From the IMG/VR virus record IMGVR_UViG_3300025853_000086, positions 1 to 60,123 of that record: a DNA stretch of 60,123 nt, one strand, 5' to 3'. Below the pieces are notes generated by a model. The model was not told the DNA's origin. It saw only the letters and a program-made list of their open reading frames with translations, and ran no database searches. Position numbers and translations under genes: made by a program. The DNA is from a virus (taxonomy: Duplodnaviria > Caudoviricetes). Position 1 is the first letter of the stretch, and the number at the start of each line of letters is the position of its first letter. This document shows positions 8,476-46,901 of the stretch, in pieces.

Positions 8476-8520
8476 TGTAATCTCCTTTCTGTGGATTACG
8501 GTTTCTGTTAATGCCTAATA

Positions 8521-8558
8521 AGTGTGGCTTAGGACGGCACCGTCCGTAAAGTCTTATT
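8521..8558 (-). promoter_or_regulatory. Sigma70-like promoter with a palindrome in the spacer
   Basis: AATAAGAC-TTTACG-N18-CACACT; GGACGG-N2-CCGTCC in the spacer. Confidence 0.55.
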
Positions 8559-8561
8559 TGT

Positions 8562-8801
8562 TCAGAACAGGTCGTTGTCGGTAGACCATGTTGCTCCTAT
8601 CCCGTAACCACATCCCGAGCAAGCTATTTGACACGTTACTTCAGCCAAGAGCATAAACTCTTTTCCTCCACAGAGCGAGCACACTAGAACATCAACAATT
8701 TCTTGTCTTGTTGTGACTGGGTCTACAGGTGGCTTTTCTCTCTTTCTGAATGGGACAACATTGCTTGTTGCATCCACGGGGGCGTTGGTCTTGTCTTCCA
8801 T
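8562..8801 (-). CDS. Zn-ribbon protein
   Basis: Two CxxC pairs; NVVPF motif. Confidence 0.7.
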   Translation of the reverse strand: MEDKTNAPVDATSNVVPFRKREKPPVDPVTTRQEIVDVLVCSLCGGKEFMLLAEVTCQIACSGCGYGIGATWSTDNDLF

Positions 8802-9226
8802 ACGCATAGTTTTGCCTTATCATTTATGTAGTAGCGGCGATACGCAGCAATCGGGTCGTGGTCTTTGTACTCAGGGGGCATGGCTTGCGCAAAAGGAGTG
8901 AACCCTTGGGCGGTCAGCTGCTGTGGCGCATTGGTGAGCAGTTGTAAAACTTTTTGACACCCATGCACCCTCCCATACCGGTAAGTGTATTCGTCACAGA
9001 GCGCCAAGCCAAGTTTGAGTAACCATTGGTAGTTGGTCAAGGTTTGGCCTGCCCACAACGTACAAGGATGTTTTTGATGCACCGGCTTGTACGGTCCTGG
9101 TTCGTCGTAGCGCCAGTGTACGGTGGACAGCATTTGGGTGGTCTCTAAGGGCATTTTGACAACGTGTTTGTCGCAATGCCACCGAGCGCATTGTTCGTGG
9201 TCCCAGTCTAAGAGGAATATGTTCAT
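8723..9226 (-). CDS. Pyrimidine dimer DNA glycosylase-like protein
   Basis: MNIF.LD, HCDKHVVKM.LE..QML, HPCTLW, EYTYRYG..H and AYR.YY motifs. Confidence 0.85.
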   Translation of the reverse strand: MNIFLLDWDHEQCARWHCDKHVVKMPLETTQMLSTVHWRYDEPGPYKPVHQKHPCTLWAGQTLTNYQWLLKLGLALCDEYTYRYGRVHGCQKVLQLLTNAPQQLTAQGFTPFAQAMPPEYKDHDPIAAYRRYYINDKAKLCVWKTRPTPPWMQQAMLSHSEREKSHL

Positions 9227-9267
9227 CTAAGTACCCTTGCTATTAACAGGGTAAGTGTAATGGTCAA

Positions 9268-9417
9268 TTAACGGCGAGATGCGTTCTCATTGCTCTCGTT
9301 TGTTCTGTCCATTTCTTCTAGGATATCGATGAGCAGATACAACTCATGGAGCAAATTACCGAGGTGGTGGTCGTCTATGGTTTCGGTGTCTACTTCCACG
9401 GAAAAGTTAATCTTCAT
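9268..9417 (-). CDS. Small acidic protein (49 aa, not in the ORF track)
   Basis: Hand translation MKINFSVEVDTETIDD... Confidence 0.55.
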   Translation of the reverse strand: MKINFSVEVDTETIDDHHLGNLLHELYLLIDILEEMDRTNESNENASRR

Positions 9418-9949
9418 CTAGCATACCTATCAGCTGTAGTGCTGGAGCAAACCAAGGCTCGGCGTGGTACTTGGTCAAGTAATTGCCGCCACGCTTAAAC
9501 ACATCAAGAGCAAAGGTGTTGCCCATCTTATATAGGCGATGACAGTGCAGCATCAGCTCGAGTTTGTCGCAAGTATCGCAGATTCCGGTTTCTTCTTCGG
9601 ACAATGGGATGTTTATCCCTAACTCTTGTTCTACTGCTTGCTCTAGCGTAGCCATGCAATCAGCCAGTATGGGATGCCTCCATTTGGTAGTAGCGGGTAG
9701 GTCACCTAGTTCGCCCTCGGGTACATCGTGGTAGAGCATATGCAGTAAGCACTCTTTGCTTGTATCAGGCCAAAGTGTATGCAGTAGCACTGCTGCTCTC
9801 CAAGAATGGGCGGCGACGTCTTGGTGGTCAGCCAGTTCGGGGCGGGTATGGTAACGCTTGACATACCCCCCTTTGAGTTTACGATGCAGCACGGCTAGGG
9901 TAGCTACTCCATCATTGTTGTGTGTTTGTGTTTGAGTCCGCGTGTCCAT
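9407..9949 (-). CDS. HD-domain (YfbR-like) deoxynucleotide phosphohydrolase
   Basis: VKRYHT, VAAHSW, YHDVPE..GDLP and CDKLE motifs. Confidence 0.88.
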   Translation of the reverse strand: MDTRTQTQTHNNDGVATLAVLHRKLKGGYVKRYHTRPELADHQDVAAHSWRAAVLLHTLWPDTSKECLLHMLYHDVPEGELGDLPATTKWRHPILADCMATLEQAVEQELGINIPLSEEETGICDTCDKLELMLHCHRLYKMGNTFALDVFKRGGNYLTKYHAEPWFAPALQLIGMLDED

Positions 9950-11829
9950 GGCTTCTCCGTGAAGGTTTGTTTTGCTTCCCCCCAGTTTGGTCCAAATTCT
10001 GCATCAACTACGGAGGGAACTTCTAGTTGTGCGCAGGTCTCCATTATCTCGGCTATTTGTTTGGCTTGCTGCTCGCTGTGGACGGATACGTCTAACTCGT
10101 CGTGTACCTGTACCATTGGTATTATGCCTTCCTCGTAAAGGGCGACCATTGCAGCCTTGGTCTGGTCGGCTGCGCTACCTTGTATCAACTTGTTGAGAGC
10201 TTTGTAGGTAAATGCCCGTTTGATCCCAGGACCATGCTCTGCATAAGCATCTTGGTAAGTCATAGGTTTCCAACTACCGTAGCGGGTAGGTTCCCATTTG
10301 TCAAACCTACAGCGGCGTCCTAAAAGGGTTCTTATAACCCCCCGCTGACTTGCCCGCCTAATGCAGTGGTCGCTTAACTCTCGTACAAAAGGGACTTTGG
10401 CATGGTAAGTAGCAAACAATTCTTGGGCATCTTCGTATTCTAAGCCGAGGCTTGCGGCGAGCTTTTTTGTGCCCATGCCGTAGAACAGCCCAAGGTTGAT
10501 GTCCTTTGCTTGCTTGCGCGGTACGCCTACGATATCTGCCGCCAATTGGTGGAAGTCCGTCCGTGGGTCTGCTTGGTACTGCTGTGCAAAGTCTGCCGCG
10601 CCTCTAAAGCCCATCAACTTACTGTAATGCACCACTATGCGGGGTTCTTGGCTAGAGTAGTCGAAAGCGCCCCACAGACAGTCTTTTTCTGGTAGGAATA
10701 GGCTGCGTATAAGTGGTCCGAGTTCTGGGTGGCGAGCAGGAATCTGCTGCAAGTTAGGGTTGCTATAACTGAACCGCCCCGTGACAGTGCCGCCGTCGTC
10801 GCTGCGGAGGGGGTGTAGCTCGGCGTGGATTTTACCGTTTATCTCGTGCTTTAGTATGGCGTCTATAAAAGTACCACGCGCCTTTTGGTACTCCCGCGCT
10901 TGGACAATCATTTGCGCTACGCTGTGGTCATGGTTCACTAAGAACCCTTTTGTAAATGACGGCGCTTGGGTCTTTTCCGTTTTGGGGTACGGTAACCCTA
11001 ATTTGTCAAAGGCTTTGGCTACACTTTCCGCCGCCCAGATGTCCACTTCTACTCCGGTGATGCGTTTGACTTCTTTGACCAAAGCGGCCTCGCGTTTTAG
11101 TAAGTCTTGCTTAACGCGCTCAGCTTTGTCTAGGTCGACGTTTACGCCCTGCATCCGCATGGCAATGATGATAGGCGTGATGCGTAGCTCTAAGTCTACG
11201 ATGTCGCCTATATCTTCTTGTATTATTAGGGGTTCGAAATGGTTCCATAACCGCAAAGTAAGGGCGGCATCTTGTTCGGCGTAGGCTCCCACATGGGCAG
11301 CAGGGAGTTTGTACATTTCGGATTTTGGATTAACTCCAAAACTAGCCGCTGCTTCTCTAAGATGAACTTCGGATTTTCGGTCGGATAAGTAGTCCCTTCC
11401 AAGGGAATTAAGTGCATAGGAGAATCTGTTTTCGTCGAGCAAAGGTGCAATAACCATTGTGTCGATGATTCTTCCATGCACTTTGACACCCTCGCGGAGC
11501 AGCCACCCAACATCGTAAGGAGCGTTATGGAAAATGTAATTCCTATCCACCGAGACAACATCTTGTACCCACCGTAGTGTCATTGCTGGGTCAAAGTTTG
11601 GACCAAACTCATGCCTAATAGGAAAGTACCATTGATCGCCGTCCACGGCTACTGCTATGCCGATAATATGCCCGTCGCCTCGTGCCCATCCTGCCCCCAT
11701 AGTCATGAGGTTCGGGTCTTTGGTTTCTAAGTCTATTGCTACTTGTTTGGCAGAACTAAGGTCGGGGTAACCGTCGGGCATAACCCACTCAGTTGGTGGT
11801 TGGAACATTGGGATCTGCATTCCGGTCAT
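9904..11829 (-). CDS. DNA polymerase family A with 3'-5' exonuclease
   Basis: DLET, HNAPYD, TGRFS..NPNLQQIP, DYSSQEPR, K.INLG..YG and QVHDEL motifs; the start may be 11820. Confidence 0.97.
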   Translation of the reverse strand: MTGMQIPMFQPPTEWVMPDGYPDLSSAKQVAIDLETKDPNLMTMGAGWARGDGHIIGIAVAVDGDQWYFPIRHEFGPNFDPAMTLRWVQDVVSVDRNYIFHNAPYDVGWLLREGVKVHGRIIDTMVIAPLLDENRFSYALNSLGRDYLSDRKSEVHLREAAASFGVNPKSEMYKLPAAHVGAYAEQDAALTLRLWNHFEPLIIQEDIGDIVDLELRITPIIIAMRMQGVNVDLDKAERVKQDLLKREAALVKEVKRITGVEVDIWAAESVAKAFDKLGLPYPKTEKTQAPSFTKGFLVNHDHSVAQMIVQAREYQKARGTFIDAILKHEINGKIHAELHPLRSDDGGTVTGRFSYSNPNLQQIPARHPELGPLIRSLFLPEKDCLWGAFDYSSQEPRIVVHYSKLMGFRGAADFAQQYQADPRTDFHQLAADIVGVPRKQAKDINLGLFYGMGTKKLAASLGLEYEDAQELFATYHAKVPFVRELSDHCIRRASQRGVIRTLLGRRCRFDKWEPTRYGSWKPMTYQDAYAEHGPGIKRAFTYKALNKLIQGSAADQTKAAMVALYEEGIIPMVQVHDELDVSVHSEQQAKQIAEIMETCAQLEVPSVVDAEFGPNWGEAKQTFTEKPWTRGLKHKHTTMME

Positions 11830-11959
11830 CCTTTTTAATTTTCATGGGCTGCTTACAAGAACATATCGGCCACTTGTTTTTGAGTGACCGGTACGTCTTG
11901 GTTTTTTGCTCCTTGCCGCATTCACAAACAGCGATTACTTCGGTATCTAAACTGGTCAT
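11789..11959 (-). CDS. Small Cys-rich protein (56 aa, not in the ORF track)
   Basis: Hand translation MTSLDTEVIAVCECG...WPICSCKQPM; ATGA coupling. Confidence 0.6.
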   Translation of the reverse strand: MTSLDTEVIAVCECGKEQKTKTYRSLKNKWPICSCKQPMKIKKDDRNADPNVPTTN

Positions 11960-12288
11960 TTTTGTTTGGATACAAGCTCCGCTTCAACAAGGGTGAGATA
12001 ACGGCGCAGGTCGCGGATGTCGTCGATTACGCCTTCGTCTCTTTGGTCTTTAGTGCAAGCGGCAAAGATGTCCCACCCTTGCTCGGACACTTGCTTTTCT
12101 AGCCTGTCCCACTTACGGGCTAGCATCATAAAAGCACCAATGCCTCCGCGCTTTTTCCAACTGTCGCCGTAGCTTTGCTCAGCTTGGTGGAGTTTGTACA
12201 CGTCCATGTCGGCTACTTGTTGGCACGTCTCCATGAAGCTCGTATAAGTTGCTTTGTCTGGTACTGATGCGTAGTAATTGTTGTCCAT
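11956..12288 (-). CDS. Nucleotide-modification-associated protein (Nmad1/MazG-like)
   Basis: YGDSWKKRG...RKWDRL...D.I.DL..Y pattern; adjacent to the TS homolog. Confidence 0.72.
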   Translation of the reverse strand: MDNNYYASVPDKATYTSFMETCQQVADMDVYKLHQAEQSYGDSWKKRGGIGAFMMLARKWDRLEKQVSEQGWDIFAACTKDQRDEGVIDDIRDLRRYLTLVEAELVSKQK

Positions 12289-12289
12289 G

Positions 12290-13270
12290 TTACAGTCTCC
12301 TCTCAAACCATTCGGTACAGGCTTTACGCCATGCTTTGTCTTCTATGCACATTGCTGTGAAAAACGCCCCTTCCTTATCCTTACCTTTCCACTGTTGCCA
12401 CGCTTGATACATAGGCACGGCGGTCTCGGCTATATACCTGTTTCTGTACTCATGGTCGCTTGACCCGTCATGCATGAACAACTCTAACTCCTGATCGAAG
12501 GTTGTTGGGTCGTCAACTAAATTAGGTGGTTGGTAGAGCACAATAGAGTCGTCTACGAGTTCGTAGTTGCTGTACTGTGGTTGCATACCTTGCAGCTTGT
12601 CTAATACCTCTACATAGGCGTGTAGATTGTTTGAAAACTGCACATAGTGCCCCACATGTAAACCAAGCATCTGCGCCATGTATTCCAACAACACCGACAT
12701 ATGTACGGCATTAGCACCGTATGCACCCCAGATCATATCGTTGCTGCGGTTTACCACAGTCATGTTAAGTGTTTCGTCCCGGACTTGGAAAAAAATCTGG
12801 GTGTTGCAGGGGTAGTCTTTGCCATCGTTGGTGGTTACTAGGTCATGGTTAGCATCCCACATACTAACCACTGTCCGGCGGTCGTTAGGGTAAGTAGTCA
12901 AGCGATGCATAGCTAACTTGAGTTGGTCTTTACCAAACCAATTGCGCCATCGGTAACCGTAAGCTCCGTGGAAAGAAACACCATCGTCGCTGTAGGTGTT
13001 TATCCTACCGTTGAACTGGTTGATCCATTTGACGTCGTTACGTCCGGCGAGCATCCAAAAGGCTTCCATCAAATGGAAGAAAGGGTTGGCGTCCCGCTCT
13101 GGGTAGAACAAGGCTCGTTCTCTGGAATGCGTGTAAGTAGTAACTACCGGAGTAGGGAACTCTAACACGGGACCATTGCGGGTCTGTACTTGTACTCCCA
13201 TTGCTTCGATCCCTTGCTTGGCAATATACAAAGCCTCGCTTACGTTTCTTGCTCGTATAGTGTGTGTCAT
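12290..13270 (-). CDS. Thymidylate synthase homolog, likely dUMP hydroxymethylase
   Basis: Catalytic DYPCN, NRSNDMIWGAYGAN (Asn at the dUMP specificity position) and NLHAY; start trimmed to MTHTIR. Confidence 0.88.
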   Translation of the reverse strand: MTHTIRARNVSEALYIAKQGIEAMGVQVQTRNGPVLEFPTPVVTTYTHSRERALFYPERDANPFFHLMEAFWMLAGRNDVKWINQFNGRINTYSDDGVSFHGAYGYRWRNWFGKDQLKLAMHRLTTYPNDRRTVVSMWDANHDLVTTNDGKDYPCNTQIFFQVRDETLNMTVVNRSNDMIWGAYGANAVHMSVLLEYMAQMLGLHVGHYVQFSNNLHAYVEVLDKLQGMQPQYSNYELVDDSIVLYQPPNLVDDPTTFDQELELFMHDGSSDHEYRNRYIAETAVPMYQAWQQWKGKDKEGAFFTAMCIEDKAWRKACTEWFERRL

Positions 13271-14550
13271 TCTTGTACTCCCATTGCTGCTTGCCAAATA
13301 CCAAAAAATTCTAACTTCTTATGGCACTTTTCCTGTAATTGTTTTGTTTCCTTTCCTGTCGCACAGCCTTGTGTGCTGTTGGCTAGGTCTATGTACTCTT
13401 GGGCTACGGCGGTATCGGCAAAGCGTTGGACAGCCGTGACATTGTTGTTAGCAATGGTTGTCCATTGGTTGCTATCGGTTAAGCCATTGTCGATTATGTC
13501 GGCAAACTCTTGGGGGGTTGCTGCGGCAGGTACCTCTATGTAGTTGACGCCCGCCGTGAACACCTTGCTGTTGTTCATACCTAGGTCGGTTGCCACAGGC
13601 ACCGCTCCGCAAATCATGGCTTCCATAGTTGTACGATTAAAATGCGCACCAAAGGCCGAATACTTTTTAGACCAACTGGGGTCTATCTGTAGCTTGCTGT
13701 CCCGCAGGAGGTGGTAGTGCATATCAGTAGGGATGGTGCCTACATACTCCATGCCGTGACGCAGGGCTTTGTCCCAGATACGGTCACCGGTTGCGTCAAA
13801 ATACTTAGGTTTGCATTTTTCTTGGCTAGTCATGTAGCGGTACTCTATCCCTGCGCCGCCTACTCGCTTAGGTTCTTTTGTTTTTAGGTGTGGTATGGCA
13901 CGGATTAACGTATCTACCCGCTTCCATGCTTTGAATACCTGCACTGCACAAAATCCGGCACGGGTTTCAAACTTCGACATAGGCACCGCATTAGTTAGGT
14001 CAAAGGGGTTTACAATCATTTTGCGGGGTATAGCAATACACTCCGCACTGTGATACGCAGACTCGTGTACGCAAACCATCGCGTGAAAATGATGCCCAAC
14101 CCAAGCCAGATGCGGGTACAGTTCGGGCAGGTTACCATCGTGTATGATGGCTATGTTTTTAGTCCCGCTGTTGTACAAGTCTAGCCATTCGTTAACGGCG
14201 GCGTTTTCTTTGTTGACGGTAGGCACAGGGATATGCCACAGGACGAAGTCGTACCCGCTGCATTTGTTTTTGAACTTAGCTCGCTCGTTAGGGTCTAGGT
14301 AAGCCACTTTGTTCTCGTTAGGCCACCACCATCCCCTAGCCTGATGGAAGAACAATCCTGTGCCGTGCTTGCGGTACTCTGCTAACACCTCTGGTTTTGG
14401 TCCACGGGTAACACCAAACTTCTTTTTAGGGCACAGCTTGACAAAGTCTACAGTGTGGCCTAGCTTGACAAAACCTGCTGCTAGGTTCTCCGCGTGGTTG
14501 ATAATACCGCCATAATCTTGGATGTCGAACAGGGTCATGAGTATTTTCAT
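13267..14550 (-). CDS. GT-B fold glycosyltransferase, putative DNA base glycosyltransferase
   Basis: N-terminal MKIL...YGG...LA..F...GHTV; C-terminal EAMICGAVPVATD. Confidence 0.85.
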   Translation of the reverse strand: MKILMTLFDIQDYGGIINHAENLAAGFVKLGHTVDFVKLCPKKKFGVTRGPKPEVLAEYRKHGTGLFFHQARGWWWPNENKVAYLDPNERAKFKNKCSGYDFVLWHIPVPTVNKENAAVNEWLDLYNSGTKNIAIIHDGNLPELYPHLAWVGHHFHAMVCVHESAYHSAECIAIPRKMIVNPFDLTNAVPMSKFETRAGFCAVQVFKAWKRVDTLIRAIPHLKTKEPKRVGGAGIEYRYMTSQEKCKPKYFDATGDRIWDKALRHGMEYVGTIPTDMHYHLLRDSKLQIDPSWSKKYSAFGAHFNRTTMEAMICGAVPVATDLGMNNSKVFTAGVNYIEVPAAATPQEFADIIDNGLTDSNQWTTIANNNVTAVQRFADTAVAQEYIDLANSTQGCATGKETKQLQEKCHKKLEFFGIWQAAMGVQE

Positions 14551-15452
14551 TAGTTGACAGCTCCTATAACAGGTGTCTTTGTTGTTGCTTGCTCCACACG
14601 GAACAGGCTCCGTGGTGTGCCCTGTTTTAGGCGCACTCTTTCATACTTGTCCCACTCGCACAGGCTATGCTCTATGGTGCGCATGTCTACATCTAAAACA
14701 GGAACGCATGAATCTTTTAAATGACGTCTTGCTACACACAGTAGATCAACCATCTCGTCGTTGGCTTGCTTTGAGTTAAGAGATTTTTTAAGGTCACGTT
14801 GGTGGATACGGTTCAATCCGCGTATTGCTCCAGGACCGGCGTTTGCCCATGTGAACTTGTCATAAGGCCAATGTAAGACAGGCGTGTAGCTGAGGTCGGT
14901 AACTACCTCATAAGCCATAAAACCCCCGCCTCCCCAACCTTTATATTGTCCTAACATTTTGTGCGTCAGTTCTAGGCTTCGGTTTTCTTGTATACTTTTG
15001 GTAATCTTGGTGCGGTCTTCCCAGATAGGGGTAAGGAATTTGTCGACTACTACCTCAGACTTTGGTAACTTGAGTCCTTGGTTAGTGATTATATAAGCTC
15101 CGGTGAAGGTTCTTTGCTTGCGAGCAATGCGTTGCTCTATCAGGCGCTTGGTTTCTTCTGGGTTCCAGTCGGTTACCCAACCGTGCTCTTCTGCAAACTC
15201 TGTAGTGCCAACCATGCGAAACAAACAAGTGTTGAACACTATCTGCTCGGCAGGTCTTCGGTCTTGTAGGTTAGTCCAGTTTTTGCGCATCCAAACGGTT
15301 ACCCTGTCGTTCTCGCGAAAAGGGTTAGTGAACTTGTAGTTGGCTAAGATAGGATCAGCTGTCCAAGGCGGGGGGTTACCCGCCGCCCTGTTCAGGTAGA
15401 TTTGGTGCCGCTCTTTTATCCAACCGAAAAAACTTTCTATAGCTTCGGTCAT
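14550..15452 (-). CDS. aGPT-Pplase1 / 5-hmdU DNA kinase helical-domain protein
   Basis: ERHQIY, PPWT.DPIL..YKFTN..RE.DR.T, FTGAYII, F.AYEVVTDL, GPGA.RGL and EH.LCE.DKY.R motifs. Confidence 0.88.
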   Translation of the reverse strand: MTEAIESFFGWIKERHQIYLNRAAGNPPPWTADPILANYKFTNPFRENDRVTVWMRKNWTNLQDRRPAEQIVFNTCLFRMVGTTEFAEEHGWVTDWNPEETKRLIEQRIARKQRTFTGAYIITNQGLKLPKSEVVVDKFLTPIWEDRTKITKSIQENRSLELTHKMLGQYKGWGGGGFMAYEVVTDLSYTPVLHWPYDKFTWANAGPGAIRGLNRIHQRDLKKSLNSKQANDEMVDLLCVARRHLKDSCVPVLDVDMRTIEHSLCEWDKYERVRLKQGTPRSLFRVEQATTKTPVIGAVN

Positions 15453-15462
15453 GTTAGGTTCC

Positions 15463-16008
15463 TTATTTTAGTTCAATGGCTCCGTGGTCGATGGCGATCT
15501 GTATATCGGTGCCACCTCCGGGAGAAGGCTGCAAAGCGCGTAGGAGAGTCATTGCTTCGCCCACGGTTGGGCTATTCATAACTACGACCATGTTGCGGTG
15601 CCGATTAGTACCCTGCCGGATAGGTGGCTCGGCTAGCAGTGGGACAATAGAAAGTTTTGGGTCAAAGCGTTTACGGGTTTCAACTTTCTTTTCTACGGGT
15701 TGGGTTACTTGTTCGGGTTGGGTCATTGATTCCTCCACTGGGGGTGTCCAAACAACAGCTTTAGTATCTACAAAATCGTGCAGGGTTTCAACTAATTGTT
15801 GTTGGTTTACAAAAGACATGGGTTTGCCGATAGCTTGCCACACCGAATGCAATCTTTCAAAAGAGTAGTGTTTAAGCAAGTTATCGGGGTTGTTGCCTCG
15901 ATACACAATAGACTTGTGGTTTATGGCAGGACATTGGTTGGCTATCTGCAGATTCTCAAAAGCAAGCAGTTGATAGCCTGTGGCGTTTTCACAAATTGCG
16001 TAGAACAT
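15463..16008 (-). CDS. Hypothetical protein, first gene of the modification operon
   Basis: Start trimmed to MFYAIC after ATAGAAAGGG. Confidence 0.78.
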   Translation of the reverse strand: MFYAICENATGYQLLAFENLQIANQCPAINHKSIVYRGNNPDNLLKHYSFERLHSVWQAIGKPMSFVNQQQLVETLHDFVDTKAVVWTPPVEESMTQPEQVTQPVEKKVETRKRFDPKLSIVPLLAEPPIRQGTNRHRNMVVVMNSPTVGEAMTLLRALQPSPGGGTDIQIAIDHGAIELK

Positions 16009-16030
16009 GGGATCCCTTTCTATGGAATAA

Positions 16031-16069
16031 GGCAAGGTTCATTATAGTAATGAACCTTGCCCCGAACAA
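16031..16069 (-). promoter_or_regulatory. Sigma70 promoter overlapped by a perfect 14-bp inverted repeat
   Basis: TTGTTC-N17-TATAAT; GGCAAGGTTCATTA-tag-TAATGAACCTTGCC. Confidence 0.8.
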
Positions 16070-16080
16070 GAAGTATTTTA

Positions 16081-17109
16081 TCAAGCTACTTTAGCGTACT
16101 CCAGTGCTTTAGTCAACGCTTGGCGTTTGGTATTTGCACCGCTACCGAACCACGCACTGTGCAGAGCGTTGCCTTGCTCGTGGGAACGCTTCTGGTGATC
16201 CACTATGTAGGTCACCGCATTGAGTGCGCCCCACCATGTTCCCTTAGCAGATTCTAACCCTGCTCCGGGACTAAGGTCAACTGCGTCGCGTACCATTTGT
16301 GCTGTGTGTTTGAACTCATCGCGCAGCGGCGGCAGCTTGCTAATGTCAGCAGCTTTGCCACGCTCTATCAGCGCATTGGGTTGGAATAGCTCCGCAATGA
16401 AGTTATCTAACTGGTCGCCTTTAGCCTTTTTCTTAGCTAAGAACTGGGACTGCTCTTGGAACGCTTGCATTTGGTTACCGGACAAGCCTAGGGCTTCCTC
16501 GGCTGCGCGTTGTATTTCCTCGTCGAACATTTGTAGATGCAACACACGGAACTTGTTGCCTTGCTGTCCTAGTGCCATAGTCAGGGTATTGTTACACACC
16601 ACTCGTATGGGCGTGAACATAATGGTCATCGCTTTGCCTACTTGGTGGCTGTTGTTGAGCAGGAGGTAGCCTTCGACTTCGTCACCCCCTGCAAGGGTGA
16701 ATCCTTTGGCAATCTTAGCCAAGCCCCAAACATCCTTGCCTCCTTTTAAGCTACCCGCCGTTTCCATAGTCATGTTACCTGCTTCGGTAAACTTTTTGAA
16801 GAACGACATAACTTCTGCATTCTGGAACGGCACATAACTTTCACCACAGTTGGACAGGACTTTGTTGTCGCTGTCGCGGACTAGGAAGTGTTGGTCTGGT
16901 GCGCGGATAAAACTAGCCTCGCCAGTTGGGTCGACTATATTCCAACAGTCGGGCTTGTCTACAGTGTACGCCGGACGCTTGCTAACTGTCCAGTCTATTT
17001 CTGCTGCGATAAGCATTTCCTGTGGGGTCATTGTGGAATCGACTGCGTTACCTAAACCATGCCAAGGGACTTGGTTAGCGTAGGCCATTGTTTCTACTTG
17101 GTGTGCCAT
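16081..17109 (-). CDS. DUF932 family (TIGR03299-like) phage/plasmid protein
   Basis: MAHQVETMAY..PWHGLG, ETAGSL.GG and TPIRVVCNNTL motifs. Confidence 0.9.
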   Translation of the reverse strand: MAHQVETMAYANQVPWHGLGNAVDSTMTPQEMLIAAEIDWTVSKRPAYTVDKPDCWNIVDPTGEASFIRAPDQHFLVRDSDNKVLSNCGESYVPFQNAEVMSFFKKFTEAGNMTMETAGSLKGGKDVWGLAKIAKGFTLAGGDEVEGYLLLNNSHQVGKAMTIMFTPIRVVCNNTLTMALGQQGNKFRVLHLQMFDEEIQRAAEEALGLSGNQMQAFQEQSQFLAKKKAKGDQLDNFIAELFQPNALIERGKAADISKLPPLRDEFKHTAQMVRDAVDLSPGAGLESAKGTWWGALNAVTYIVDHQKRSHEQGNALHSAWFGSGANTKRQALTKALEYAKVA

Positions 17110-17129
17110 GTGGAACTCCTTTCTGTGAG

Positions 17130-17426
17130 TTAATGTATTGTTGGGGAAGATATATTTACCGTTGTTTCCGGCAAGGTTAAAAAAGTAGTTATAAACGAGC
17201 TATACTCCATTTCAACTTCTACGTACTCGGTCAGCCCCACTAAAACAGTTATTACAACACCGTCGTCTGGTAGGTTTACTATCTTAGCTACCGGAAAATT
17301 GTGGTTTTCTTCTAACTGTTCTAACAACTCGGGGTCAACCCAGTGGCTAAGATCTAACTGTATAGCCGTTTGGTTGATCTGGGTAAGCGTATGCTTGTCC
17401 ATGTACTTTATTTTCTGGGTTGCCAT
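17130..17426 (-). CDS. Hypothetical protein
   Basis: 98-aa ORF, SD GGAG, upstream promoter. Confidence 0.7.
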   Translation of the reverse strand: MATQKIKYMDKHTLTQINQTAIQLDLSHWVDPELLEQLEENHNFPVAKIVNLPDDGVVITVLVGLTEYVEVEMEYSSFITTFLTLPETTVNISSPTIH

Positions 17427-17461
17427 GCTTTACTCCATAAGTATTATTTAATGGCAACGCC

Positions 17462-17490
17462 AGTGTAGTGTCAACTGTGTGTTTTGATAA
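17462..17490 (-). promoter_or_regulatory. Sigma70-like promoter
   Basis: TTATCA-N17-TACACT. Confidence 0.55.
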
Positions 17491-17497
17491 GCCTTTG

Positions 17498-18193
17498 TTA
17501 CTCTTGTTTGTTCAAGCCTTTGTAGAACTGGTCAACCCTGCGTAACCACATATCCTTATATTTTTGGAACTCTTTGCCATACACACCAAACTCCGAGGTA
17601 GTACCATCCCTCACTGCCATGAGAATAATGGCGTGGTCTATGTCTGTTCCGTGCAGCTCGTTATGAGCCAGAGCATATGCAGCCAGTTGGCAAAAATAAT
17701 CTTCAATCCATTCACGCCGCTTAGGTTTATTGCTCTGTTTGAAGTCTACGATGCAAGGTTTATCCCTGTAAACACCCACCAAGTCTGTGGTTCCTGCGTA
17801 TTTATCAGGATAATAGAGCATGACTTCGCTGCCCCAGACCTCGTTCAAATACTTAAAGTAAGTATGGATTAACTTGTAGCCCATGCTGTAGCCCTGAATC
17901 ATTTGCCAATCGGTTGGGACAGGCAAAGGTCGGTCGGCTAACATCTCCTCTATAACAAGGTGCATATAAGTACCTACTTGGGCAGCGTCGTCGCGGATGC
18001 GGTCAGCCTCGGCTTGGCCTACCCGCTCAACCCATTTAAGAAGAGATTCTTTATCTTCTTTGGTCTCCCCTAGAATGGTGGTAACACTAGGGAGCTTTTG
18101 GTCCCCGCAGACGTACCTTCGACCTTCGGGCAGGTCTTGGCGTTCTAATGTTTGATACTGGTAGGGTGGGTTTATTTCAAAAAGGGGTGGCAT
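17498..18193 (-). CDS. PD-(D/E)xK exonuclease
   Basis: PSVTTIL, GT.MH, YAGTTDL, IVDFKQS and QLAAYA motifs. Confidence 0.9.
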   Translation of the reverse strand: MPPLFEINPPYQYQTLERQDLPEGRRYVCGDQKLPSVTTILGETKEDKESLLKWVERVGQAEADRIRDDAAQVGTYMHLVIEEMLADRPLPVPTDWQMIQGYSMGYKLIHTYFKYLNEVWGSEVMLYYPDKYAGTTDLVGVYRDKPCIVDFKQSNKPKRREWIEDYFCQLAAYALAHNELHGTDIDHAIILMAVRDGTTSEFGVYGKEFQKYKDMWLRRVDQFYKGLNKQE

Positions 18194-18200
18194 AGCTTCC

Positions 18201-19718
18201 TCAACAGGGTAGGGAATAACCCTTACTAGACATGGGGTGGATTAAATGCAGGTTCTGCTTTGCTCGGGTTAGGCCAACATAAAAAACCCTCGCCTCGTCT
18301 TCGTCATGGTGGGGCATATTACGCCACATAGAATAGGGCTTGGTCATAGTATCGGTAAGGAGTAAGACGTTATCTGCTTGCGCACCCTTAGAAGAATGAA
18401 TGGTGGATATACGAATGCGAGGTTCTTCTAATAACTTTTCCCCCTTACGGAGACAGGCTTTAATGTAGCCCTTGTCTTGGTCTGTTATCTTACCCATGCC
18501 CTTATCCCAAGGTAGGCTGTGCAATAACCCGTGGGATTGTTGTAAGTCTGCAAGACTGTAGAACACACTATCTTCACCGTCGGGCATTGTTTTACACCCG
18601 TAGGCTATCTGGGTGTGGAGCATCATTTGTTGGTACACCAACCGGACATGCTCGGCGGGTAATCTGGCCCCTTCGCGTAAGTTTTCCCACAAGCGGACAG
18701 CTTCTAAAACACGGCTATCTATACTGCGGCTACCGTTAAACGAATACAAATGCCCCCGCCGCCTGACCTGCTCTTCTATCTGTTGCGCACCCTTGGTTGT
18801 CCTACTTAATAACAACCATTCTCCTTGGGAGATGTTTACCTCCTCCGAGTGACGGTACCAGTTAATAACACCCTGCTCATCTTTAGGGGTAAAGCTCTTA
18901 GGTCTGCGACCAACGACCCGCTCAATCACTTGTTTGCTTAGGGTGTGGTGTAAATGCGGAATGCGATAGCTCTTGTTGAGCAGGGTGACATTGCCCTGTA
19001 GGTTTACAAAGTGTTCTACGTCTGCCCCTGCATACCGGAAGATAGCTTGGTCGTCATCACCGGCGACATAACAAATCTTACTGTTCTTTTGCAGCAAAGC
19101 AACCATCTCCCATTGGATGGGAGAAAGGTCTTGGGCTTCGTCTATGAACACCACCTCTAACTTGGGAGCAGCTTCTCTTTTCAAAAACAGCTCGAGCATT
19201 CCGGTGTAATCGTACAAACTGTTTTGCTCTTTCCAATGGTTTAACCCACGCTGAACATAGTCTACACGTTCCCAATCGGTTTTACGGGGGACAATACTGT
19301 CGTTGTATAGTTTACGCAAAGGTTGGCGCATGATACGCGCCATGTTGATTATTTCTAAAAACTTGTCCCCGTAACCAAAGTCTTTGTATGGGCCTTGATC
19401 TATCTGCGGTCCGGAATAAAACTTACCTATCTTTAACCAATCGGCAATCTCTTGGTACTTGGCAGGGTTCATAATTTGAGAGTGGGTCAGTCCGGCTTGT
19501 AAAAAAGCCAGACTGTGGAGCGTTCTAAAATAAGGGAGGTCTAACTTATTAAGACTAAACTTCTTCATCGCTCGGGATACCGCCTCTTCCGCTGCCCTGC
19601 GTGTAAAAGCAAAGTAGCCAATACGATCCGGCGGCACACCCTTTTCTAAATACTCTTCTACCAAGGACAACAGTTTAGTGGTTTTACCTGTTCCGGGAGG
19701 TCCTAGAATAATATTCAC
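18201..19718 (-). CDS. UvrD/Rep-like SF1 helicase
   Basis: GPPGTGKT, DEAQD, GDDDQAIF, TIHSSKG and YVGLTRA motifs. Confidence 0.95.
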   Translation of the reverse strand: MNIILGPPGTGKTTKLLSLVEEYLEKGVPPDRIGYFAFTRRAAEEAVSRAMKKFSLNKLDLPYFRTLHSLAFLQAGLTHSQIMNPAKYQEIADWLKIGKFYSGPQIDQGPYKDFGYGDKFLEIINMARIMRQPLRKLYNDSIVPRKTDWERVDYVQRGLNHWKEQNSLYDYTGMLELFLKREAAPKLEVVFIDEAQDLSPIQWEMVALLQKNSKICYVAGDDDQAIFRYAGADVEHFVNLQGNVTLLNKSYRIPHLHHTLSKQVIERVVGRRPKSFTPKDEQGVINWYRHSEEVNISQGEWLLLSRTTKGAQQIEEQVRRRGHLYSFNGSRSIDSRVLEAVRLWENLREGARLPAEHVRLVYQQMMLHTQIAYGCKTMPDGEDSVFYSLADLQQSHGLLHSLPWDKGMGKITDQDKGYIKACLRKGEKLLEEPRIRISTIHSSKGAQADNVLLLTDTMTKPYSMWRNMPHHDEDEARVFYVGLTRAKQNLHLIHPMSSKGYSLPC

Positions 19719-21238
19719 TAAAGAATGCCTTCGTTTGGTAGCTCAGGTAACGGAATGGACTCTTCATACTCTTGGAAGTAATCCTGTGGTAAAGACCAGA
19801 CATGCACTCCCTTGCCCCGTACCCGCCAAAACATCTTTTCGGCTTGCAGGTCTTGCAGCCGCAAAGTAATCTTGTTGGACGTGTAGTGGTTAAAGTCGTT
19901 CACGTGCAGGTGCTTTTTCAAGTCTTTTACTTGGAACCACACCTTATCGTCAACCCAGACAGCAACCCCTTGCAAAATGTCTTCGCGCTCTTCACCTTTA
20001 GCTCTGTCACAAGCAAAAGCATGGAGCAGGTCTTCAAATTCTCCTTTAATAGTAGCATCCGGTGGGACTTCTACTATAGTTAAATTGTCCAACAATAACT
20101 GAATTGTTGTCTGCCACGCCCGTTGATTTACCGTAACAGGGAACCTGTTGATTTGCGACACACATTCTTTTTGAAAAAAGTTTTGGCTAGTCAGCGCATT
20201 AGTACTCAGTTCTACACGGTTGCCATCCACGTTAAGAATCCAGATAGGTGGGTCGCCATCGATTTTAGTAAGACTGGAAAGGTCATTGGTCACACCCGTC
20301 GGCCCGACACCATACTTGCGTCTTTTACAAACAGCTTTGTCGCAAAAGGGCTTTATGGGTTGGTCTTCGCACTTGTAAAAATACTCTTTCTTTTTTAGCT
20401 GCCGGATTATTGTACCTACCTCGCTGTGGCCTAGGGGCGGGTGTAGGTAATCCATGTTGTAGCGTTGGAGTAGCGTTTCCCAGTTGTCCTCGTCGTACAG
20501 GCGAGCATACACACCTAAGTTGAATAGGGCATTGTTCCGCGAACCTTCACCAAATCCTTTACTGCATAAGTGTTGTAAGCAGGGAGGACCCTCTTCTAAG
20601 ATACCTTCCTTAGTGCCAAAGGACATGTTCAGCTTGCGGAACTTAGCAGGAGTGGTAACAAAGTCTTTGGCGTAGGTTATAAACTGCTCTGGGGTTAAAG
20701 CTACGCCATCGTCGTCGTAACCGTAGCGGGTGGATTTATCACCCGAGTGGTACGGCATATTCAAAAAGTTACCTGTGTCGCCTCGCTCTACAAGAATGGT
20801 GGACTGCTTGGGGAAGATCTCACACCCAGAGTGGCCTAACGCCGCACTGAGCTCTGCCATCTTGCGCTGGACTTCCTCTGCGGGGATGGCTTCTGTTAAA
20901 AATATCCAGACGTGCGCCCCACCACTCTTTGTTCTCCCCACTACGGCGGGTATCTTGTTGGCGCGGAGGGTGGTTACTAAATCTTTTTGGACTACGTCGT
21001 ACTGGTCTATATCTATTGCGCCCCAACGGCAAAGGTTCTCGCTGTTGATAGGGATAATACCAAGGCCGGTTCCACCTTTTAAATGCTCTTCCCACATGTC
21101 GGCGGTGGTTGGCTCGCGTATAACTTTTGCTGTGCCTTGTTTCTTGCCGTCGCGGTCGCGGGTGGTACTAACAACATAAGTCCCGTGGGCTATGTCGCTG
21201 CCTTTGAATAACTCATAAAATTCGTGTGCTAGTGTCAT
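19718..21238 (-). CDS. Primase-like protein (AEP with PriCT-like domain)
   Basis: WGAIDID, RTKSGGAH, GNFLNMPY and PPCL...EGSRNNALF motifs. Confidence 0.8.
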   Translation of the reverse strand: MTLAHEFYELFKGSDIAHGTYVVSTTRDRDGKKQGTAKVIREPTTADMWEEHLKGGTGLGIIPINSENLCRWGAIDIDQYDVVQKDLVTTLRANKIPAVVGRTKSGGAHVWIFLTEAIPAEEVQRKMAELSAALGHSGCEIFPKQSTILVERGDTGNFLNMPYHSGDKSTRYGYDDDGVALTPEQFITYAKDFVTTPAKFRKLNMSFGTKEGILEEGPPCLQHLCSKGFGEGSRNNALFNLGVYARLYDEDNWETLLQRYNMDYLHPPLGHSEVGTIIRQLKKKEYFYKCEDQPIKPFCDKAVCKRRKYGVGPTGVTNDLSSLTKIDGDPPIWILNVDGNRVELSTNALTSQNFFQKECVSQINRFPVTVNQRAWQTTIQLLLDNLTIVEVPPDATIKGEFEDLLHAFACDRAKGEEREDILQGVAVWVDDKVWFQVKDLKKHLHVNDFNHYTSNKITLRLQDLQAEKMFWRVRGKGVHVWSLPQDYFQEYEESIPLPELPNEGIL

Positions 21239-21253
21239 ACTGCCTCCAGTAGT

Positions 21254-21294
21254 AAAAGGTGGGATCCCCCCTGTAAATGCAAAGGGGATCCCGC
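21254..21294 (-). terminator. Hairpin between the SSB-like gene and primase (terminator or attenuator)
   Basis: GGGATCCCC...GGGGATCCC stem followed by ACCTTTT on the minus strand. Confidence 0.6.
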
Positions 21295-21326
21295 AGTTTT
21301 AGGGCGATCAACCCCTACTACTGTTC

Positions 21327-22148
21327 TTACATGACACCATCGTCAAATTCTTCTGGGGTAAGGTCATCGTCCGAAGCATCAACCTTCGCCGCTTCTTGTT
21401 CTTTGACCTGTACCTCACCTGCTTTTACAGATTTAGCAAACGCCATTGCCATATCAAACAGGGTTGCATCGTCTGGGTCTTGTGGGTTTAAACCACGCTC
21501 GCGTGTGATATCCCAACCGAACCACGAACCTTCGTCGTTTTGCTCGTGGACTGTTTTAGCACGGTACACTTGGGACATCAACGGCATGATATACACACCC
21601 TTGGCACCCTTGGCTGTTAAAGACTGGGCTTGGGTCATCCATTTACGGGCTTTCTTCAACTGGGTACTGGTCATCGTAATCAATGCACGTTGTGGGCCGA
21701 GTTCTGGGTGTAATACAAGTACAAAAAACTGTGCAGTATTTTGGAGATAGTTGCCATTGGGCAGCATATCTTGGTGGGTACGCTCATCCCTGCGGGTGGT
21801 TGCTACAATGGGGTCGGTTGGCTCATACGCCTGAACGTAACCACCACCTTGTTCGCGGGGCTTCCACTCTACAAACCTACGGCTGTAGTGGCAGGGAATA
21901 AGCTGGACACCTTCCTCGCCGTTGTACACTTCGTTAAGTACAGTATTAAAGAACATACCTTCCTCGGCACCTTCTACATAAGCACCGTCACGCTTATTTT
22001 TCTGTGGTGACATGGCTTGCAGAATACGCAGGAATGGGATGGCAAGGTCTTCGCTGGTTACTTCGCTAAAGCCTAGGTCGCCAAACTCTTCAAAACCCTC
22101 GTACACAGTAGGCAGGGCATCTGTTTTAGTTGCTACTTCTTTAGTCAT
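21327..22148 (-). CDS. Putative single-stranded DNA-binding protein
   Basis: DLAIPFLRILQ.MSPQ motif, acidic C-terminal tail, position in the replication module. Confidence 0.65.
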   Translation of the reverse strand: MTKEVATKTDALPTVYEGFEEFGDLGFSEVTSEDLAIPFLRILQAMSPQKNKRDGAYVEGAEEGMFFNTVLNEVYNGEEGVQLIPCHYSRRFVEWKPREQGGGYVQAYEPTDPIVATTRRDERTHQDMLPNGNYLQNTAQFFVLVLHPELGPQRALITMTSTQLKKARKWMTQAQSLTAKGAKGVYIMPLMSQVYRAKTVHEQNDEGSWFGWDITRERGLNPQDPDDATLFDMAMAFAKSVKAGEVQVKEQEAAKVDASDDDLTPEEFDDGVM

Positions 22149-22150
22149 GG

Positions 22151-22711
22151 TTATATTCCTTTCTTGGGAGTTACGATTTTTGTTTTTTCGCCTATAAACA
22201 AGCCAAACATGTCAGCGGGGATGTTAGCCCCTTTCTCGGTTTGGTCTTTTACAAACGCCTTAAGTGTCATGGGTTCTACCCACTTTTTAGTGCTGACTGC
22301 CATACCTTTCTGCTCGAGGTCTCGCGCAAACAGTTCGGCTTGCTCCTCTTGCCCACGCACAAAATTAGTAGCCACTTGGTTTTTGATTAAATCACCAAAG
22401 CCGTTATCCACTAACCAACTGAACGCTTGGTCGGTTTTATCTTTGGGGATGCTAGCACTGTAGAACTTACCTACAGAAACACTAGACCCGTCAGCTAATT
22501 CCAACTTGGATATGCCATACTCCGACATAGCAGCAGGTAGTTGGTCCTCGGAAATAGAGCGGAGTGCCTTTTTAGTTTCTTTTACTTCTTCCTCGAGTTC
22601 GGCAATGCGTAACTCTAAGGTTTGTTGGGTTCTAGCTAGGCTGCTAACCTTGCTGAGGCCTTGTTCGTCAACAGAAGAAAGTTCTCCCGCCGCTTGCTCA
22701 AAATCAACCAT
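22151..22711 (-). CDS. Conserved replication-module protein (coiled coil)
   Basis: AF.WL..NG.GDLIK and VEPMTLKAFV motifs. Confidence 0.75.
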   Translation of the reverse strand: MVDFEQAAGELSSVDEQGLSKVSSLARTQQTLELRIAELEEEVKETKKALRSISEDQLPAAMSEYGISKLELADGSSVSVGKFYSASIPKDKTDQAFSWLVDNGFGDLIKNQVATNFVRGQEEQAELFARDLEQKGMAVSTKKWVEPMTLKAFVKDQTEKGANIPADMFGLFIGEKTKIVTPKKGI

Positions 22712-23048
22712 CGGTAGGGTCTCCTGTTTTATGGTAAAGGTCTGCTTCTAAGGGGAGGTATTTGGCAAGCTGCCTGTCCCACTTAAGCATTTTGAATCTG
22801 CCATTGTTATGCCTACTAGCAATAGCAGCCGAAAGAGCAATAATCGCAGGGTCACCGGCAAGTAATATGTAGTCTTGGTCGTTAAACTTGGATAGCTTGC
22901 GGTTAATCTTGCGAATAGCAGGTTGGGTAGACCAAGCTGCTTGCTCCTCTGCGGGGATAAGTATTTCAAGATCGCCAAAGGTACTAGCGTCTGTAATGTC
23001 TCGGCCACGCACTTCTTGCGTTATGTAAACGGTCATGTCTTTCTCCAC
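22704..23048 (-). CDS. Conserved hypothetical protein
   Basis: DYILLAGDP and LKWDRQ..Y motifs. Confidence 0.8.
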   Translation of the reverse strand: MEKDMTVYITQEVRGRDITDASTFGDLEILIPAEEQAAWSTQPAIRKINRKLSKFNDQDYILLAGDPAIIALSAAIASRHNNGRFKMLKWDRQLAKYLPLEADLYHKTGDPTDG

Positions 23049-23149
23049 ATGAGTTAATTGGTATACCCTTTATTGCAAAGGGGTAGTTATAGTAGCCCAA
23101 AGATAAAAAATAGCAAACTCGTTTTTGCTCCAATATATTTCAGTAAACC

Positions 23150-23318
23150 ACTTTACATAATAGGTCGAAATTCGCGAACGTAAGTGCTTGAAAATAATTC
23201 ATAAATTGCCGCGCGAACACGAAAGAAGTGAACAACTGAGTGATATTGTATATTGTATATCGGAAATTGTTAAAAAACTAATTTTAGTACATCCGACTTT
23301 TACTCCTATTATGTAAAG
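23150..23318. repeat. Inverted-repeat-bounded element B, homolog of element A
   Basis: Left arm ACTTTACATAATAGGTCGAAATTCGCGA; right arm CCTATTATGTAAAG; internal GCCGCGCGAACACGA shared with A. Confidence 0.88.
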
Positions 23319-23343
23319 CTGTTACAATTAGACCAAACAAGAG

Positions 23344-23372
23344 TTGTTCTGCTGCCGCCCTACACCTATACT
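23344..23372 (+). promoter_or_regulatory. Sigma70-like promoter of the helicase
   Basis: TTGTTC-N17-TATACT, preceded by AAACAAGAG. Confidence 0.7.
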
Positions 23373-23410
23373 TACCGTACCCTAATAGAAAGGTGGGTGA
23401 GGAAAAAACA

Positions 23411-45385: not shown

Positions 45386-45684
45386 GACGTAACCACCGTT
45401 ACCCAACCAACACACCCGACACCGGTAACAGGGCCGAGCGACTCATTTTCCACAACGGGAATACCCACATACACATTGTAAGGCTCCACCCTATCTGTTC
45501 TAGGATTATGCAACGCTTGTGGGTCAGCCGGTTTAGTGATCGGTTCTAGCTGAGGGTGTTTTGGCTCAAAACACTCTTGACAAACCTTAAACCCTGTCCA
45601 CTCCACCTGCATACTTAAATAAGGGTATTGCTGCCCACATCGGTCGCAAATAGCTAAGGACTGTATCCCAATGGCATACGTCAT
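45382..45684 (-). CDS. Conserved Cys-containing protein
   Basis: AICDRCG...C.ECFEPKHPQL. Confidence 0.75.
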   Translation of the reverse strand: MTYAIGIQSLAICDRCGQQYPYLSMQVEWTGFKVCQECFEPKHPQLEPITKPADPQALHNPRTDRVEPYNVYVGIPVVENESLGPVTGVGCVGWVTVVTS

Positions 45685-46364: not shown

Positions 46365-46374
46365 CATTTATTCC

Positions 46375-46689: not shown

Positions 46690-46901
46690 TAGCCTAAACC
46701 TTTGAGTAGCTGCAAAAGTGTGTCGCTATTAACTAAACCACCAAAAACTACCGCACCAACTAAAACCCACTTAGCTTGAAACAAGGCTTTTTTGACATCC
46801 CGCATGTCGGTATGCAACTCTTCCACTTTGCTGTAAATATGCTTTTGAGTTGTACGCATTTCCGTGAACTCAATTTCAAGCTCGTGTACTGTTTTAGCCA
46901 T
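46689..46901 (-). CDS. Coiled-coil protein with one TM helix
   Basis: Start trimmed to MAKTVH. Confidence 0.7.
   Translation of the reverse strand: MAKTVHELEIEFTEMRTTQKHIYSKVEELHTDMRDVKKALFQAKWVLVGAVVFGGLVNSDTLLQLLKGLG

Follow-up and report, generated by a model that had tools for sequence, protein, structure and literature searches.

The stretch analyzed here, referred to as the window, is the whole of IMG/VR record IMGVR_UViG_3300025853_000086 (60,123 bp), a virus genome that is 100% complete by CheckV and belongs to an uncultured phage. Nearly all genes of the record lie on the minus strand, as do the eight closely packed genes at 9407-16035 with which this study is concerned. In order, they comprise an open reading frame (ORF) of no known family and the genes for a helical protein of the HMUDK_hel/aGPT-Pplase1 family (HMUDK_hel below), a GT-B glycosyltransferase (GT), a thymidylate synthase (TS) homolog, a small conserved protein, a mini-protein with four cysteines, the DNA polymerase PolA and an HD-domain 5'-deoxynucleotidase (Table 1). 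A first-pass annotation made from the letters alone had read the region as a thymidine hypermodification cluster in which T is replaced by 5-hydroxymethyluracil (5hmU) and partly glycosylated. Pfam and PHROG searches bore out the gene order, identities and coordinates it had given, with the exception of the weak label "Nmad1-like" for the small conserved protein. Among the profiles it had proposed to search with, HMUDK_hel, Thymidylat_synt (PF00303) and Glycos_transf_1 were matched, and ADDT was without a match.

Table 1. Genes of the putative thymidine modification cluster, listed in cluster order (positions are those of the window).
Product	Positions	Strand	Best matches or basis
Unknown ORF	15463-16008 from ATG (181 aa), or to 16035 from TTG (190 aa)	-	no family
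HMUDK_hel / aGPT-Pplase clade 1, 300 aa	14550-15452	-	PF18723 E 1.6e-52, 179 bits vs cut-off 25; phrog_2396 1.7e-55
GT-B (GT4-like) glycosyltransferase, 427 aa, candidate 5hmU-DNA glycosyltransferase	13267-14550	-	Glycos_transf_1 8.9e-9, 35.6 bits vs cut-off 26.4; Glyco_trans_1_4 3.8e-8
TS homolog, 335 aa from TTG, real start perhaps further in	12290-13297	-	PF00303 6e-24; phrog_5131 9e-109
Small conserved helical protein, 110 aa	11956-12288	-	homolog of Pam3 gp54 (hhalign)
56-aa protein, two CxC pairs, zinc-ribbon-like	11789-11959	-	translation
PolA, family A DNA polymerase with 3'-5' exonuclease	9904-11829	-	DNA_pol_A 5e-62; DNA_pol_A_exo1 6.6e-9; phrog_17 1e-121
HD-domain YfbR-like 5'-deoxynucleotidase, 180 aa	9407-9949	-	PF12917 2.6e-9; HD_3 6.4e-6; phrog_6047 3.5e-33

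The TS homolog carries the residues by which the substrates and products of such enzymes are told apart. In the numbering of Escherichia coli ThyA, Cys146 is the catalytic residue; Asn177 denotes deoxyuridine monophosphate (dUMP) and Asp at this position deoxycytidine monophosphate (dCMP) as the substrate; Leu at position 143 goes with a methyl and an acidic residue with a hydroxymethyl product; and replacement of Asp169 by Asn marks the 5-hydroxy-dCMP synthases (PMC13326640). When the window protein was aligned to solved TS structures, its GKD-Y-P-C-N and N-R-S-N-D-x3-G-x4-N blocks fell on these diagnostic positions, placing Asp at 143, Cys at 146, a retained Asp at 169 and Asn at 177. Each of the four residues is present in 57/57 aligned homologs, a set in which the window enzyme and that of yuavirus PAC9 are joined by 55 non-redundant homologs, each reaching at least 70% of the length, from the 64 surveyed loci that have a TS ORF (see below), and the whole motif block is common to the window and yuavirus enzymes. 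The protein is best read as a putative dUMP hydroxymethylase, neither a dCMP enzyme nor a 5-hydroxy-pyrimidine synthase. The structure alignment and the 57 sequences agree with the first-pass annotation, which had taken the Asn of an RSND...GAN motif to point to dUMP rather than dCMP. The modified base of the M6 group of phages, to which yuavirus PAC9 belongs, is derived from 5-hydroxymethyldeoxyuridine (5-hmdU) (PMC8989533). A further feature of the TS homologs is that Asn takes the place of ThyA His147 (residue 165 of the window protein) in all 57 sequences, the yuavirus enzyme included.

In M6-, PaMx11- and ViI-type phages, a P-loop 5-hmdU DNA kinase phosphorylates 5hmU in DNA, and an aGPT-Pplase of clade 2, the amino acid:DNA transferase (AADT), then puts an amino acid in place of the phosphate; the reconstituted thymidine hypermodification pathways that we know of all run via 5-phosphomethyl-dU, with an amino acid or a polyamine as the added group (PMC8989533). 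In the whole record, neither the 5-hmdU DNA kinase family PF18748 nor the yuavirus kinase protein gave a match at E<=10, the ADDT family PF18724 (aGPT-Pplase2) gave none at E<=1, and the kinase and AADT of AN14 reached no better than E 0.3 and 0.88, respectively, in tblastn searches. A six-frame scan for Walker A motifs returned a single one on the coding strand, inside a UvrD helicase. Pfam searches with 50 ORFs of the window (all large ones included, those below ~90 aa mostly outside the scan) yielded replication, lysis and SU10/Pam3-like structural proteins and no kinase, pyridoxal phosphate (PLP), radical S-adenosylmethionine (radical-SAM) or nucleotide-sugar enzyme. The kinase, Walker A and AADT searches thus uphold the earlier statement that the cluster has no P-loop kinase and no second helical transferase. 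The lack of both enzymes is well supported for the known families; because of the size limit of the scan, this support does not extend to an unrecognizable kinase.

The product of the GT gene was modeled with AlphaFold (AF2; predicted local distance difference test score, pLDDT, 91.7) and has the two-Rossmann GT-B fold. Its top Foldseek matches are HepE, PimA, BshA and MshA (E 1e-14 to 1e-11; template modeling score 0.6-0.7 normalized to the target), and GlgM, glycogen synthase, TarM and SdgB are also among the nearest solved folds. The closest of these folds are those of nucleotide-sugar-dependent, retaining GT-B enzymes of family GT4. As judged from the model, the protein would be a GT4-type retaining enzyme, for which an alpha-linked product is expected. 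We found 317 homologs at E<=0.001, of which the 120 listed are 40-96% identical to the window protein and almost all metagenomic; where the longest contigs of these exceed 40 kb, they are of phage size (42-83 kb). Relatives are encoded on 257 IMG/VR contigs, yet tblastn against 50,697 deposited phage records gave no match at E<=1e-5, and a megablast search with the cluster likewise gave none. The GT family is viral and widespread, and since it is common in metaviromes and absent from these deposited records, its chemistry has probably gone unobserved in the laboratory so far.

The genes surrounding the GT were surveyed in the best 80 of the 257 contigs, up to 7 kb on either side. A TS homolog is found near the GT in 67 of the 80 loci by tblastn (cut by the locus end in three), and 62 of these 67 also hold HMUDK_hel; among the remaining five, four have fewer than 260 bases upstream of the GT, so that absence cannot be judged there. 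In another 11 loci (L072-L082), the GT is directly preceded by a Tet_JBP dioxygenase (PF12851, E 4e-25 and 4e-13), whose gene usually ends 4 bases before the GT start or overlaps the GT, and loci with sufficient flanking sequence have an AAA_5 ATPase further upstream. TS and HMUDK_hel are absent from all 11, and no locus of the 80 has both TS and Tet/JBP. Relatives of the yuavirus kinase, AADT, PLP and radical-SAM proteins occur in 0/80. Only two loci are without TS and Tet/JBP. One of them, L069, is truncated, with ~700 bases left upstream of the GT; TS and HD genes are present in its sister locus, L068. The other, L062, is a third and unexplained context of the GT: two radical-SAM proteins, one of them B12-binding, lie upstream of it (L062:3960-8359), and no TS, HMUDK_hel or Tet/JBP gene was found within 7 kb.

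The association of GT and TS persists across lineages that differ in gene order, which may be Pplase1-GT-TS as in the window, GT-Pplase1-TS, or Pplase1-small protein-GT-TS, or may have the GT ~6.5 kb away from a Pplase1-TS pair. The Tet/JBP loci sit on T4-like backbones with a gp45 clamp, a gp44 clamp loader and a deoxynucleoside monophosphate (dNMP) kinase. No C5-methyltransferase was found among the 14 GT neighbors scanned in two of these loci; the lack of such a neighbor is a criterion for T-dioxygenases over dioxygenases of 5-methylcytosine, and T-dioxygenases are described as "frequently associated" with glycosyltransferases (PMC13229309). From their gene content, L072-L082 form a candidate cluster for post-replicative 5hmU glycosylation, in which a second sugar is possible. 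The order in one of them (L082:3648-9862) is AAA_5 ATPase, Tet_JBP, GT, a 271-aa protein with a weak match to Anp1 (mannosyltransferase) and a dNMP-kinase-like protein. The GT thus goes with whichever enzyme makes a 5-hydroxymethylpyrimidine, and its place beside either known source of this base is explained most simply if it is a DNA hydroxymethylpyrimidine glycosyltransferase.

These observations lead us to the reading that 5hmU takes the place of T before replication and is then O-glycosylated on the DNA, to which we assign a probability of about 0.6. In the first, pre-replicative stage, the TS homolog would turn dUMP into 5-hydroxymethyl-dUMP, as suggested by its active-site signature and by synteny, the HD 5'-deoxynucleotidase, perhaps together with the Pam3-gp54-like protein, would shift the nucleotide pool away from thymidine nucleotides, and the phage PolA would put 5hmU in place of T. 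In the second stage, which would take place on DNA, genomic context and fold suggest that the retaining GT4-type enzyme moves a sugar from a host nucleotide-sugar straight to the 5hmU hydroxyl, and the product would be an alpha-glycosyloxymethyl-uracil. HMUDK_hel is part of a conserved 5hmU backbone module composed of Pplase1, TS, HD, small protein and PolA. Direct glycosylation needs no phosphate activation, which would account for the absence of the kinase, AADT, PLP and radical-SAM genes of M6/Pam3-type phages. The phage DNA probably carries a sugar on 5hmU; glycosylated 5hmU has the best support as the product, given that Tet/JBP dioxygenases are the partners of this GT family in other loci. 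Of the inference made in the first-pass annotation, the assignment to an M6/Pam3-type thymidine cluster, the missing kinase/AADT cassette, the presence of a GT and the preference for glycosylated 5hmU all stand; the product would not be base J itself, as the GT is GT4-like and predicted to be retaining.

Several points weigh against this reading. No DNA-acting glycosyltransferase, those of T4 included, is found among the Foldseek matches of the GT listed to rank 50, and the usual acceptors of GT4 enzymes are lipids, small molecules or polysaccharides. Two weak searches for longer proteins, one with the GT and one with HMUDK_hel, found no GT fused to HMUDK_hel, TS or Tet/JBP. No nucleotide-sugar synthesis gene that would hint at the sugar donor was found among the ORFs scanned in the window. 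In a quick maximum-likelihood tree of 64 of the 81 rows (the other 17 were duplicates or too short), all GTs linked to Tet/JBP fall into a single clade of 6 non-redundant rows with a Shimodaira-Hasegawa-like approximate likelihood-ratio test (SH-aLRT) support of 100; their context therefore speaks for a single switch and does not amount to repeated independent support. Moreover, acceptor, sugar and degree of modification are all inferred, and the model leaves the role of HMUDK_hel unexplained.

The match of HMUDK_hel to PF18723 spans profile positions 1-277 of 281, and its invariant residues include G206-P207-G208 and L264-C265-E266. The AF2 model is all-helical (pLDDT 89). Foldseek gave 0 matches to PDB folds at E<=0.001, and among the best marginal ones are the helix-hairpin-helix (HhH) DNA glycosylases OGG1, Mag1, Tm1821 and MutY (E 0.6-1.2); an HhH DNA-glycosylase-like fold has been predicted for aGPT-Pplase, as cited in PMC8989533. 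Across the loci, HMUDK_hel tracks the TS route and not the GT (62/67 TS loci vs 0/11 Tet/JBP loci). We conclude that it belongs to the pre-replicative 5hmU module and works there at the level of DNA. As a candidate for the transferase of the published pathway it is ruled out, since AADT belongs to clade 2 and the clade 1 protein of M6, gp55, is dispensable in vitro for amino-acid transfer; in SP10, gp186 consists of HMUDK_hel fused to a kinase (PMC8989533). Most likely, HMUDK_hel is an accessory or a catalyst on 5hmU-containing DNA, acting beside the enzyme that modifies the hydroxyl: the kinase in M6 and SP10, the GT in the window. A predicted complex of GT and HMUDK_hel (score 0.01, mark 0.32) gave no verdict. 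The weak search for longer proteins with HMUDK_hel returned fusions of it to TS, PolA, a primase-helicase (PriCT/D5_N/AAA_25-type), a Dam methylase and a thymidylate-kinase-like domain, some of which may be read-through gene calls.

HMUDK_hel may itself be catalytic, as its L-C-E motif is invariant in 17/17 and 19/19 sequences, and this Cys-Glu pair makes the earlier claim that the cluster has no amino-acid transferase-like catalyst less than certain. One could picture HMUDK_hel acting first, its Cys-Glu attacking C6 of 5hmU and swapping the hydroxyl for another nucleophile without a kinase, after which the GT would glycosylate the appended group or supply the transferred sugar; we regard this course of events as unlikely. 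The final base would then be a new thymidine derivative that contains a sugar but differs from simple glycosyl-5hmU. Such a course would fit the invariance of the motif, the essential role of a conserved Cys and nearby Glu in AADT (PMC8989533), the position of the sole hhalign match between HMUDK_hel and M6-type AADT, which falls on the Cys segment, and the overlap of the HMUDK_hel and GT genes, by 1 nt in the window and by 4 nt (ATGA) in many loci, which equally counts in favor of the preferred reading. The hhalign match, however, is not significant (E 0.15, probability 0.4%), the 11 Tet/JBP loci have the GT family without a nearby HMUDK_hel, gp55 of M6 can be spared in vitro (PMC8989533), and a hydroxyl is a poor leaving group.

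It is less probable still that the GT acts off the DNA and only travels with the replication module, its acceptor being a lipid, a small molecule, a phage protein or a glycan of the host envelope. The nearest folds (HepE, PimA, BshA, MshA, TarM and SdgB) do belong to enzymes with polysaccharide, lipid, small-molecule or protein acceptors, and the source annotation of some homologs reads "glycosyltransferase involved in cell wall biosynthesis". Against this, 78 of the 80 loci put the GT beside a TS homolog or Tet/JBP, across gene orders and backbones that include T4-like ones with gp45/gp44 homologs, the GT gene overlaps the DNA-modification gene upstream of it, and no membrane or secretion features were noticed, although no formal test was made. 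Equally improbable is a TS homolog that makes thymidine monophosphate or, as happens in RB69 and DLP3, a 5-hydroxy pyrimidine, with the GT glycosylating that base or nothing in DNA: some TS homologs are flavin-dependent 5-hydroxy-dCMP synthases feeding DNA arabinosyltransferases (PMC13326640) and His147 is replaced by Asn throughout, but Asp169 is kept in 57/57 sequences where the diagnostic change is D169N, Asn177 in place of Asp indicates dUMP, Asp at 143 speaks against a plain methylase, and the motif block is that of the yuavirus enzyme.

Glycosylation of 5hmU on DNA, the reading that we prefer, would set the cluster apart from the known systems closest to it. The clusters of M6, PaMx11 and Pam3 have the same backbone in the same order (aGPT-Pplase1, TS homolog, HD 5'-deoxynucleotidase, small conserved protein, PolA), and the window proteins are 35% (HMUDK_hel, the M6/yuavirus protein) and 42% (TS homolog) identical to those of yuaviruses. 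Whereas yuaviruses and Pam3 carry a full kinase/AADT/PLP/radical-SAM cassette, the window cluster has none: the P-loop 5-hmdU DNA kinase, AADT (aGPT-Pplase2), the PLP enzyme, the radical-SAM enzyme and Nmad5 are all absent, and between Pplase1 and TS, where M6/Pam3-type phages have Nmad5 and the tailoring cassette, there is the GT4-type GT. Compared with the M6/ViI amino-acid pathway, the window thus has the dUMP hydroxymethylase-type TS and a nearby aGPT-Pplase1 but lacks the two defining features, kinase and AADT. A kinase-less pair of TS and aG/PT-PPlase1 lies beside PolA, as in the window, in uncultured marine phages, pelagiphages of the HTVC023P type (PMC9599517). The part of that source available to us links no GT to the pair, whereas in the window the GT is inserted into it.

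The loci that combine a GT with a Tet/JBP (5mYOX) T-dioxygenase (clade C2, ParB-independent; PMC13229309) have a GT of the same family, 36-39% identical, right after Tet_JBP. In either setting, its acceptor would be a 5-hydroxymethyl group on DNA. In the Tet/JBP loci, however, this group is made on DNA, post-replicatively and site-specifically, and HMUDK_hel is absent; in the window, HMUDK_hel is present and the group would be made on the nucleotide by the TS homolog, which implies genome-wide replacement. In the accessible part of PMC13229309, we found no determination stated of the product that Tet/JBP-linked GTs form on 5hmU.

The proposed glycosyloxymethyl-uracil in DNA also resembles base J of kinetoplastids, formed by JBP1/2 and JGT. 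Base J is a beta-glucosyl derivative made by a GT-A enzyme after the action of a dioxygenase (PMC8256090; 10.1101/2023.12.21.572611), whereas the window encodes a GT-B/GT4 enzyme predicted to be retaining, with an alpha linkage expected, and 5hmU would come from the TS homolog. The same logic as in the window underlies glucosylation of 5-hydroxymethylcytosine in T-even phages, where the hydroxymethyl nucleotide is the pre-replicative product of a TS homolog and receives its sugar from a GT once it is part of the DNA. The T-even base is C-derived, by dCMP hydroxymethylase and alpha/beta-glucosyltransferases, and that of the window would be U-derived, given Asn and not Asp at position 177. The window GT matched no Pfam family of the T-even (T4) glucosyltransferases, TAGT or JGT at E<=0.01, and none of these is among its listed Foldseek matches.

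A wider proposal, which we put forward tentatively and hold to be doubtful in its full extent, is that a large group of uncultured aquatic phages swaps T genome-wide for alpha-glycosylated 5hmU as a pre-replicative counterpart of base J, with HMUDK_hel as the long-unexplained DNA-level partner, either a targeting subunit or a Cys-dependent catalyst, of whichever enzyme modifies the hydroxyl, a kinase in M6 and SP10 and the GT here. In earlier surveys, many GT genes of viral contigs lay close to ThyS or 5mYOX (10.1101/2023.12.21.572611; PMC13229309), so that the notion that uncultured phages carry sugar-modified pyrimidines is already in print. In the literature available to us, which covers the surveys only in part, we did not find a description of the trio of TS, aGPT-Pplase1 and GT4 without a kinase, and survey supplements and datasets may list such contigs; nor did we find a demonstrated glycosyl-5hmU in a phage, the papers listed on the subject covering only kinetoplastid base J work and the GT surveys. 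If a sugar is indeed placed straight on 5hmU, it would constitute a new class of modified thymidine in phage DNA, the GT would be an enzyme able to tag 5hmU in DNA, and TS homolog, Pplase1 and GT together would offer a simple system for learning the job of aGPT-Pplase1.

Among the accessory genes of the cluster, the HD/YfbR-like gene is present in 52/80 loci, and the same type of HD gene follows the TS homolog in yuaviruses and Pam3. The 110-aa protein is 55% identical to Pam3 gp54, annotated as "nucleotide modification" (hhalign E 5e-42), has 30 invariant columns among 17 sequences and has relatives in 53-54/80 loci. No Pfam family matched it below E 0.015, and searching PDB sequences with its profile gave a chance-level match only (E 0.2). 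A relation to DUF3310 of yuaviruses was considered and rejected, hhalign finding none. The label "Nmad1-like" found little to sustain it: DUF1599 (PF07659) had no match in the window at E<=10 in six frames or at E<=5 by hmmscan, and the label retains only a weak link through one protein-atlas cluster (score 0.95) with DUF1599 on 25% of its members. Relatives of the 56-aa CxC...CxC protein were found by tblastn in 40/80 loci, and the protein matches no Pfam or PHROG family. The unknown ORF has no Walker A motif and no Pfam or PHROG match even at E<=5, its best atlas score is 0.83 with no family, and its relatives are confined to the closer loci (32/80); it is probably specific to the phage backbone and outside the modification core.

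Downstream of the cluster lies the gene for a Pyr_excise-like protein (8723-9226, minus strand; pyrimidine-dimer DNA glycosylase family, PHROG "DNA binding protein"), found in 34/80 loci, and upstream of it that for a DUF932 protein (16081-17109, minus strand), found in 33/80; both flanking genes are kept in the closer relatives. A scan of 8500-23500 for promoters and terminators gave 21 vs 16.5±3.7 and 17 vs 18.7±4.7 in shuffled sequences, respectively, none above chance, and with counts at this level the scan does not set the operon limits. No tRNA genes were found.

Elsewhere in the record, Pam3 gp32/gp33/gp34-like proteins occur together with an SU10-type portal and adaptor proteins at 21327-23048 and 44732-56828 (both minus strand), so that the backbone mixes features of cyanophage Pam3 with SU10-like ones. 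A gene for a Cpn10/GroES-like co-chaperonin (51868-52353, minus strand; PF00166 4.8e-12) lies amid the head genes. Between 24847 and 44236 (minus strand), nine large ORFs of 352-1096 aa and one of 170 aa have no Pfam match at E<=0.001; they presumably encode tail or fiber proteins, and one of them contains a 75-nt tandem duplication at 39348-39497. The ends of the record, 1-1351 and 58586-60123, repeat each other (97-99% identity over ~1.35-1.5 kb, slightly offset, with starts 58569-58772 apart), which leaves ~58.6 kb of unique sequence; the genome may have a terminal repeat, or it may be circularly permuted and the assembly may have run past its own start.

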